Shown here piece by piece: positions 10,321-64,000 of a DNA stretch of 64,000 nt. The notes beneath the pieces are model-generated. The model saw only the letters and a program-made list of their open reading frames with translations, had not been told where the DNA came from and did not search any database. Origin of the DNA: Naegleria gruberi (lineage: Eukaryota); NCBI GenBank assembly GCA_000004985.1, contig GG738885.1. One strand, given 5' to 3'. Numbering within the stretch: the stretch's first letter is position 1; each line of letters opens with the position of its first letter. A program made the position numbers and the translations under genes.

Positions 10321-10442
10321 GGATGGCTACGGCCATATCACGATGAATGCACCTCATCCCGTCCGATTTGAGAAGTTAAGCATCGTCGAGCCACATCAGT
10401 ACTGAGGTTGGAGACAACTTGGGAACCTGTGGTGCTGTAGTC
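10321..10442 (+). rRNA. 5S ribosomal RNA gene (dispersed chromosomal copy)
   Basis: GGATGGCTACGGCCATATCACGATGAATGCACC...GAGAAGTTAAGCATCG...GTACTGAGGTTGGAGACAACTTGGGAACCTGTGGTGCTGTAGTC aligns with eukaryotic 5S (GCCUACGGCCAUACCACC...AAGCUAAGCAGGG...GGGAAUACCGGGUGCUGUAGGCUUU). Helix I ends pair (GGCTAC/GTAGTC). About 120 nt. Ends are +-2 nt. Confidence 0.85.
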
Positions 10443-10447
10443 TTTTT
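10443..10447 (+). terminator. Pol III terminator T-run immediately after the 5S gene
   Basis: TTTTT directly follows the 3' end of the 5S gene. Confidence 0.5.
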
Positions 10448-19719: not shown

Positions 19720-19792
19720 TGCTGACGGACGGGATCGAACCGGCGACCAATGGCTTATTAGACCAACGCTCTACCGACTGAGCTACGCCAGC
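19720..19792 (-). tRNA. tRNA-Ile (anticodon AAU)
   Basis: Reverse complement GCTGGCGTAGCTCAGTCGGTAGAGCGTTGGTCTAATAAGCCATTGGTCGCCGGTTCGATCCCGTCCGTCAGCA folds as a 73-nt cloverleaf (7-bp acceptor, D arm GCTC/GAGC, anticodon loop CTAATAA, T loop TTCGATC). T-run (TTTTTT) follows on the minus strand. Two non-Watson-Crick pairs (27-43 T-T, 50-64 C-T). Confidence 0.75.
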
Positions 19793-28865: not shown

Positions 28866-28939
28866 GCGCCGTTAGATCAGTTGGTTAGATCGTCAGCTTT
28901 ACACGCTGAAGGTCAAGGGTTCGACTCCCTTACGGCGTA
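28866..28939 (+). tRNA. tRNA-Val (anticodon UAC)
   Basis: GCGCCGTTAGATCAGTTGGTTAGATCGTCAGCTTTACACGCTGAAGGTCAAGGGTTCGACTCCCTTACGGCGTA folds as a cloverleaf: D arm GATC/GATC, anticodon stem TCAGC/GCTGA, loop TTTACAC, T arm AAGGG-TTCGACT-CCCTT. G1:U72 wobble. Followed by ACTTTTTATC (Pol III terminator). Confidence 0.8.
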
Positions 28940-62104: not shown

Positions 62105-63382
62105 TTATGTGGATGATCGGGAAAGTTCTCTAGCTGCCAAATATTTTGGATGGCTTCTATTGATATTTGTCACAAAGAAAGTTCCCTTAACATCCTTCAT
62201 CTTGACAAGATTTTCCTTTTGCATTTGTTTGAGGAATTTACTCCACTTCTTGTATGTTGATTTCTTAATATCCAAAACTATGTCCTCGCTAAATTCAAAC
62301 ATTTTAGTATAGAATCCACTTCCTTCCATTGGTAATTGATCATCCTCAACACTACTCTTTAAAGCAGTGAGGAAGTATGATTCCAAGAGAGAGTCCATCT
62401 CTTCTGGCTTGATATCAGAAGAACCTTCACCACTTGGCTCTGCTTCATCATCACTACCTTCTACAGTTGACTTTCCTTCTGTAGCCAATGGCGTCACTTC
62501 AACCTTTTCAGTGGTTGGCTGTTCACCATCTTCATCTTCTTCCACAGATAAGATTTCAATAATTTGTGATGTAAATCCAACTGGTTGAGAGTATGTCGAA
62601 GGGGCATGATTCACGCCAAATTGCCACATAAAGTCATTGAAAATATGAACTGTTTCAAAACATTTCCCCTTATCTGCTTTTGAAAATTCATCAAAATCCA
62701 TAATCATGTCACCGATGGCAAATGGGATGGGATTTCCTCTCACTTGAATGCTTCTAATGTCACCCTTCTTGAATGGACCAATTCCTCCATGACTTCCCTT
62801 ATTATTCAATCTTTCTCCTCCAATTAAATTCATATTTTGATTCTTTTGATTTTTACTCACACCAGGTTTCATTAAATCAGCACCTTGCAAAAGATAATGA
62901 GAAACTGGTTGAGCAATATAAATAGTATCCACTAAATTAGGTGCAATTTGAAGAGCAAATATTGTTGGATAGTAAATTTCCTCTTTTTCAATCGAAAAGA
63001 ACATTGGAACATTATCTACAGTAATTACATTAAAAGTTTGAACATCTGATGCTGCTCTCAATTGTTGTTTTTGCAATTGTTGTTGTTTCTTTTTCTTATT
63101 AGGAACATTCTTTCCGACCTGAATTTCCTCTAAAATTGCCTCCGAAGCAGCAGTTTGATGATAAATAACAAACTTTGATAATTCCACATTTTGATTCTTT
63201 GTTGGTACGAGTAATCTCCATGGATTTATTTCATCACTACTAGCACTACCACCCTCTTCATCATCAGCATTAGAAGGTGCTGGAATATTTCGATATTGTT
63301 CTTGTAATTGTTTTAATAATTTTCTACGATCCGAAGATTTTAAATTGTGTGATTGAGTTTGCTTGAGTGTCTTTTTAAACAT
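62105..63382 (-). CDS. eIF2D/ligatin-like protein (N-terminal DUF1947/PUA region through SWIB-like domain), ORF ends before any SUI1 domain
   Basis: MFKKTLKQTQSHNLKSSDRRKLLKQL (human eIF2D MFAKAFRVKSNTAIKGSDRRKLRADV). PUA-like GADLMKPGV. SWIB-like DIKKSTYKKWSKFLKQMQKENLVKMKDVKGTFFVTNINRSHP (human DVKKSSHKKLSKFLQVMQKEGIIKVKELSKGVESIVAVDWKHP). The stop TAA at 62105-62107 is immediately followed, in the same frame, by PIG-B coding sequence. Confidence 0.6.
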   Translation of the reverse strand: MFKKTLKQTQSHNLKSSDRRKLLKQLQEQYRNIPAPSNADDEEGGSASSDEINPWRLLVPTKNQNVELSKFVIYHQTAASEAILEEIQVGKNVPNKKKKQQQLQKQQLRAASDVQTFNVITVDNVPMFFSIEKEEIYYPTIFALQIAPNLVDTIYIAQPVSHYLLQGADLMKPGVSKNQKNQNMNLIGGERLNNKGSHGGIGPFKKGDIRSIQVRGNPIPFAIGDMIMDFDEFSKADKGKCFETVHIFNDFMWQFGVNHAPSTYSQPVGFTSQIIEILSVEEDEDGEQPTTEKVEVTPLATEGKSTVEGSDDEAEPSGEGSSDIKPEEMDSLLESYFLTALKSSVEDDQLPMEGSGFYTKMFEFSEDIVLDIKKSTYKKWSKFLKQMQKENLVKMKDVKGTFFVTNINRSHPKYLAARELSRSST

Positions 63383-63666
63383 TTTTTTACTTTCTTTTAT
63401 TAGTATATTAATATTAGAATAAGTTCAATTTTACATTTGTACAACTACTTCAAAACAATTTTGTAAGTTGGTGTTAAACAATTCACCTTAACATCAACAA
63501 TATCTATTTGAATCATCATTTTGTATTCATCTTCCAAAAGGTTTGAAAGCCTTCAAAAAAAATATTAAAAAATATTATTGTATAAAAAATTACCCATAAC
63601 ATTTAGTAGAATAAAATGTTCGGTCTGGGGGCAATTAATAAGCGAGGAAGTGCTTCTTGTTTTTAA

Positions 63667-63784
63667 ACAGTTGTCTTACCATTCTTATAAGCAGACAATG
63701 TCTTTCGCCTTTTACTAAAGACATCCGTGTGAGAATGGACAAATAGATAACGCTAATTTTTTCTGCCTCTTCTCAAGAGGTCTG
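63667..63784 (+). ncRNA. U5: U5 spliceosomal snRNA
   Basis: Contains the invariant U5 loop I sequence CGCCTTTTACTAAAGACATCCGTG (consensus CGCCUUUUACUAAAGAUUUCCGUG), closed by the stem ATGTCTTT/AAAGACAT and the extended stem CCATTCT/AGAATGG and TTGTC/GACAA. Sm site AATTTTTTC at about 63755-63763. 3' hairpin CCTCTTctcAAGAGG. Overall length about 118 nt. Ends are +-5 nt. Confidence 0.7.
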
Positions 63785-64000
63785 TTCTTAATAGAAATTC
63801 AACCTTTTTTCTTTCGGCCTGATTGGCTTGATTTCATATATATTTGAGCTAATGTTCAATTGCTATTTCTCCACAAATTCAGGAATTACAATTTCTTGCG
63901 TAATAAGAAATATTTTTAATGATTGACAGTTGCCAAAAAGCGCATATTTTAGGAGTTTAAATTGCATCACTAACGAAATCTTTTTGAATGGGCAGCTAGT

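Follow-up and report, generated by a model that had tools for sequence, protein, structure and literature searches.

U5 is universal among intron-containing eukaryotes, and the sequence GCCUUUUAC in its loop I touches the exon ends during splicing; the Sm sites of snRNAs follow a RAU4-6GR-like pattern. Naegleria gruberi has introns and a spliceosome and, being an intron-containing eukaryote, requires a U5 RNA. The promoters of snRNA genes differ between lineages. Animal genes carry a PSE at about -55, plant genes a USE (RTCCCACATCG) at about -70 together with a TATA element at -30, and a 3' box lies downstream. In trypanosomatids, Pol III transcribes the U-snRNA genes, driven by the A and B boxes in a tRNA gene that lies upstream and points away; this tRNA gene or its A/B boxes, in opposite orientation, are found at a distance of approximately 100-150 nt.

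The snRNAs of N. gruberi were covered by the survey of Dávila López, Rosenblad and Samuelsson (2008; PMC2396436), in which 149 eukaryotic genomes were screened with Rfam covariance models, the organism and the family of methods being the same as in the present study. In that article, an unfiltered Infernal search of N. gruberi is described for U1 only, U1 is given as the only snRNA lacking in this species, and snRNAs of the U2 type are reported from virtually all species, C. merolae and G. lamblia being the exceptions. The same text states that in several groups other than animals and plants (fungi, heterokonts and Apicomplexa are named) the snRNAs have a single gene or only a few, and that such genes are then probably genuine (PMC2396436). 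Because U1 alone needed the unfiltered search and the U2-type snRNAs are near-universal in the survey, it is very probable that a U5 had been predicted there for N. gruberi. Our literature search found no paper with experimental work on Naegleria U5. The finding described here holds; it is an ordinary one, and its kind was known before. U5 is routinely detected by its Rfam model, and the importance of one more gene reaches little beyond completeness of annotation. Its practical value is a correct ncRNA annotation of the scaffold, and it contributes one data point on the promoters of heterolobosean snRNA genes and on the mobility of such genes.

Identity and extent of the U5 gene

The window analyzed is the whole 64,000-nt (64-kb) stretch, in which a first-pass annotation had proposed an unannotated U5 snRNA gene at 63667-63784. 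Judged from its sequence, the segment delimited by the Rfam U5 model on the plus strand (63671-63781) is read with high confidence as a U5 small nuclear RNA gene of N. gruberi, and its ends agree to about 4 nt with those first proposed. The coordinates of this gene, its parts and its neighbours are collected in Table 1.

In the scan of the whole window RF00020 scored 69.0 bits, where 40 is the gathering score (E=1.5e-9, an E-value that refers to 64 kb, both strands and 4227 Rfam families searched at gathering thresholds). The match covers model positions 1-117 out of 117 without truncation and lies 29 bits over the threshold with the full model. This search had been named beforehand as a check by which the U5 reading could be refuted, and the reading withstood it. 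All other U5s compared in this study score higher, though 69.0 bits is far over the threshold. In a permissive local rescan of 701 nt (63300-64000) the E-value of the same match was 1.7e-11, and the only other matches on either strand of this segment were three of 16-18 bits with E>1, which are sub-threshold noise. Only four Rfam matches were found in the whole window, namely a 5S rRNA gene, two tRNA genes and the U5 gene; no further snRNA was found in the 64 kb among the 4227 families, and the U5 gene is solitary.

The minimum free energy (MFE) fold of positions 63667-63784 matches the Rfam U5 structure and has an energy of -30.5 kcal/mol compared to -19.1 +/- 3.1 kcal/mol for shuffled sequences (z=-3.66), with none of the 200 shuffles being as stable. 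The gene is full-length; a poly(A) tract and a 5' truncation, as expected of a retropseudogene, are both absent. No ORF had been noted in the region, and the only ORFs that overlap it are TTG-initiated ones of 23-46 aa. The transcript is predicted to start probably at an A within 63667-63671 and to end near 63781-63784.

Table 1. Positions of the U5 gene, its structural elements, candidate upstream elements and neighbouring genes in the window
Feature	Position	Strand	Basis or remark
5S rRNA gene	10325-10443	+	Rfam, 105 bits
tRNA-Ile(AAT)	19720-19792	-	Rfam
tRNA-Val(TAC)	28866-28939	+	Rfam; nearest tRNA to U5
eIF2D-like ORF	62105-63382	-	Divergent from U5 gene, 289 nt apart
Candidate promoter region	63581-63642	+	Inference only
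Perfect TATAAAAA	63581-63588	+	About -88; possible promoter element
17-mer TTACCCATAACATTTAG	63590-63606	+	About -79 to -63; possible promoter element
TATA-like TTAATAAG, weak	63635-63642	+	About -34 to -27; possible promoter element
U5 spliceosomal snRNA gene	63671-63781	+	Rfam RF00020 extent
Stem Ia 5' strand GUUGUCU	63670-63676	+	Pairs with AGAUAAC (63745-63751); Rfam alignment, MFE fold
Stem Ib 5' strand CCAUUCUUAUA	63679-63689	+	Rfam alignment, MFE fold
Internal loop 2 (IL2) 5' side AGCAGACA	63690-63697	+	Rfam alignment
Stem Ic 5' strand AUGUCUUU	63698-63705	+	Rfam alignment, MFE fold
Loop I CGCCUUUUACU, 11 nt, contains invariant GCCUUUUAC	63706-63716	+	Exact match to Rfam consensus
Stem Ic 3' strand AAAGACAU	63717-63724	+	Rfam alignment, MFE fold
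IL2 3' side, conserved CCG	63725-63727	+	Rfam alignment
Stem Ib 3' strand UGUGAGAAUGG	63728-63738	+	Rfam alignment, MFE fold, RNAalifold
Stem Ia 3' strand AGAUAAC	63745-63751	+	Rfam alignment, MFE fold, comparative alignment
Sm site AAUUUUUUC	63755-63763	+	Aligned to Rfam consensus AAUUUUUG
3' terminal hairpin GCCUCUU/AAGAGGU, 7 bp, CUC triloop	63765-63781	+	Rfam alignment, MFE fold

Anatomy of the RNA and comparison with metagenomic U5s

Every U5 part is present and in canonical order (stem I and its internal loops, loop I, Sm site, 3' hairpin), which bears out the canonical U5 architecture first described for this element. Stem I consists of three helices of 4-7, 11 and 8 bp (Ia, Ib and Ic), and all twenty-three of its pairs are standard in the Rfam alignment. 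The Rfam core of stem Ia pairs 63673-63676 with 63745-63748 and can be extended by three pairs to the full strands listed in Table 1. The basal pairing is the one point of structure where the first-pass annotation had to be corrected, as alignment to the Rfam model and MFE folding agree on GUUGUCU/AGAUAAC in place of TTGTC/GACAA; the latter was rejected as the basal helix because it reuses G63738, which is already paired in the middle helix, stem Ib. Internal loop IL1 (UA on the 5' side and ACAAAU on the 3' side) separates stem Ia from stem Ib, an 11-bp helix with all pairs standard including G-U. The pairing CCATTCT/AGAATGG noted earlier (63679-63685 with 63732-63738) is part of this longer helix.

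In IL2, both cytosines of the CCG on the 3' side are invariant in our alignment (A1) and the guanine is nearly so; N. gruberi has CA in this internal loop where CG is found in most U5s. The 8-bp stem Ic corresponds to the upper stem ATGTCTTT/AAAGACAT reported before, and the loop-containing motif CGCCTTTTACTAAAGACATCCGTG is present at 63706-63729. Downstream of stem I, the Sm site was found as it had been described (AATTTTTTC); the MFE fold leaves it unpaired between stem I and the terminal hairpin. The base that follows its U-run is a C and not a G, as is also the case in Rfam-confirmed U5s from two metagenome contigs (L022 and L033). The terminal hairpin first given as CCTCTT-ctc-AAGAGG is likewise present (63766-63780) and gains one pair at its base in our annotation.

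From what is known of U5 in general, the gene would produce an RNA of approximately 111-118 nt, most likely as a Pol II transcript, on which a heptameric Sm ring would assemble at AAUUUUUUC and whose cap would be hypermethylated. Together with Prp8, Snu114 and Brr2 the RNA is expected to form the U5 snRNP, which would join U4/U6 in the tri-snRNP, with IL1, IL2 and stem I presumably serving as a protein-binding scaffold. The uridines of loop I would tether the exons through both catalytic steps, keeping the 5' exon in place once the first is over and lining it up with the 3' exon to be ligated.

For comparison, JGI metagenome contigs were scanned with the 23-mer GTCTTTCGCCTTTTACTAAAGAC, which spans the U5 loop and stem and was chosen to favour Naegleria-like U5s. 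The 23-mer occurs exactly in thirty-one independent contigs; by eye, all of them are U5-like and come from unrelated, mostly marine eukaryotes, with none being Naegleria-like. Eleven distinct contigs among the thirty-one, each confirmed as U5 by Rfam (72.5-91.9 bits on RF00020), were taken as comparators, and many of these U5s adjoin U1, U2, U4 or U6 genes. Their 5' domains align to the N. gruberi element without gaps, and they served to assess covariation at the level of the family, though not to compare promoters.

In this ungapped alignment of twelve U5s, 86.2% of the stem I cells form standard pairs under the Rfam structure, compared to 66.4 +/- 1.8% after column shuffling, where none of 500 shuffles reached the observed value, and 38-54% when the partners were slid by 1-3 columns. 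Changes on both sides were found in seventeen of the twenty-three stem I pairs. Stem Ib, which was left unconstrained by the 23-mer search pattern, shows compensatory change in all eleven of its pairs among the twelve U5s with 83% of its cells paired, and the core of stem Ia shows changes on both sides in all four pairs with 69% of cells paired. All the cells of stem Ic are paired and its two outer pairs alternate between A-U and U-A; the other six pairs carry no weight because they were fixed by the 23-mer that selected the comparison set. Stems Ib and Ic were also found by RNAalifold unaided.

Very dense ncRNA clusters were observed in three marine contigs (L006, 45-2921 on the minus strand; L008, 59-4767 on the minus strand; and L020, 418-4528). 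In L006 and L008 the genes lie on one strand only, with approximately 20-35 tRNAs being followed by SRP RNA, U5, U2, U6 and U4, and L020 carries a tandem repeat with a unit of approximately 2.56 kb that contains U6, a tRNA, U5, U2 and U1. The U5 gene is thus clustered in these contigs whereas it is solitary in Naegleria.

Genomic setting and upstream region

The window has a G+C content of approximately 34%, and the U5 gene lies in AT-rich intergenic DNA that reaches from the eIF2D-like gene to the window edge. The distance to this gene on the opposite strand had been put at about 290 bp, and it measures 289 nt from the start of the ORF at 63382 to the Rfam start of U5. Over 425 aa the eIF2D-like ORF matches an N. 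gruberi 'predicted protein' at NCBI with 100% identity, which marks the window as nuclear DNA of this species, and its next relatives are found in N. lovaniensis (64%), N. fowleri (63%) and Willaertia magna (37%).

The eIF2D loci of N. fowleri (L001 and L002), N. lovaniensis (L003), W. magna (L004) and a Naegleria-like ENA contig (L005) were compared with the window. No U5 was found in these five loci by Rfam, by the loop motif or by blastn with a word size of 7, and no U5 remnant was found upstream of eIF2D in the segments L001 9257-10000, L003 9577-10000, L004 8927-10000 and L005 4821-5154. The position of the U5 gene is therefore not conserved, since U5 is absent from the eIF2D loci of the relatives, and for the same reason covariation among close relatives could not be used. 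On the other side of eIF2D, the gene order (eIF2D, GT22, RPS17) is kept within Naegleria. In Willaertia, the region upstream of eIF2D contains two tRNA genes instead of U5.

The eIF2D-like ORF itself is short in N. gruberi, with 425 aa against 648-728 aa in the orthologues. Only residues 1-451 of the N. fowleri eIF2D protein were matched by tblastn, which found no match to the C-terminal part with the SUI1 domain anywhere in the window, and a GT22 glycosyltransferase gene begins approximately 50 nt past the stop codon of the ORF. The short ORF could reflect a genuine loss of the C-terminus, a split of the gene in two or an error of the assembly.

The first-pass annotation had suggested looking for a PSE-like promoter upstream of the U5 gene, and a motif scan turned up no consensus element of either animals or plants there. 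Neither the plant USE nor the human PSE gave a match upstream within the mismatch limits, no match to the 3' box was found downstream of the gene, and the only perfect TATA upstream on the gene strand is located at -88; the scan thus found neither form of the animal or plant type of Pol II snRNA promoter (PSE, or USE with TATA, and 3' box). The failure to see these motifs says little, since the consensi scanned are those of animals and plants and may not be those of Naegleria.

Trypanosomatids and Naegleria both belong to Discoba and both are without the animal or plant PSE/USE. The trypanosomatid arrangement does not apply here because there is no tRNA near the U5 gene: Rfam found none within approximately 34 kb of it in the window. 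In the motif scan of the 370 nt upstream, no A box was matched, and the only B-box-like match is a weak 11-mer with two mismatches at -129 (63540-63550, plus strand). The N. gruberi U5 RNA also differs in being of full size (approximately 115 nt) and in carrying an internal T6. A T6 run is a terminator for Pol III in most eukaryotes, and we infer that Pol II is favoured, because the T6 within the Sm site would terminate Pol III. A second T6 run (63805-63810), located 24 nt past the 3' hairpin, is a possible termination signal.

Three possible promoter elements were located in the candidate region upstream (Table 1). The 17-mer TTACCCATAACATTTAG has a single occurrence in the window, and at least one match with up to three mismatches was obtained in 24 of 100 shuffles. 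The assignment of the three elements to a promoter is speculative. A broader proposal, that snRNA genes of Naegleria move easily and depend on a lineage-specific, undescribed promoter, possibly with TTACCCATAACATTTAG and TATAAAAA at -90 to -63, is tentative and rather doubtful.

Alternative readings and comparison with described U5s

The element might also be a silent or decaying duplicate, that is, a U5 pseudogene with the functional gene or genes being located elsewhere in the N. gruberi genome, which we consider improbable. Such a duplicate would fit a locus that is not syntenic in three related heteroloboseans and in one Naegleria-like metagenome contig, the lack of a recognizable snRNA promoter element and the lowest bit score of the comparison, but the missing motifs weigh little for the reason given above. 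Decay is difficult to reconcile with an exact and intact loop I, standard pairing throughout the 23 pairs of stem I and the presence of both Sm site and 3' hairpin in an element of full length with neither a poly(A) tract nor a 5' truncation. The 2008 survey bears on both sides: true snRNA genes are said to be hard to separate from pseudogenes computationally, whereas snRNA genes that are single or few in some groups are taken as likely bona fide, a statement which is an extrapolation when applied to Naegleria (PMC2396436).

It is vanishingly unlikely that the resemblance to U5 is a matter of chance, in an intergenic hairpin of AT-rich sequence or in an element that regulates the divergent eIF2D-like gene. 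The AT-richness of the intergenic region is in favour of such a resemblance, but we exclude it because of the Rfam E-value, which is corrected for the full length, two strands and all families searched, the exact match of 23 nt across the U5 loop and stem in the metagenome contigs, and the stem pairs that remain in register with compensatory changes. The fold z-score also argues against it.

Taken as a U5 gene of N. gruberi, the element is closely similar to the U5s of RF00020 (e.g., human RNU5A). It is about as long as the model (117 positions) and has the identical 11-nt loop I including the invariant GCCUUUUAC, and it shares the three-part stem I with IL1 and with an IL2 that carries CCG on its 3' side, followed likewise by a single-stranded Sm site and a terminal hairpin. 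Compared to other U5s, the 3' hairpin is short (7 bp and a triloop) and the stem sequences are lineage-specific, yet compensated. These differences from the described U5s, together with the C in the Sm site and the CA in IL2, are minor and lie inside the variation of the family.
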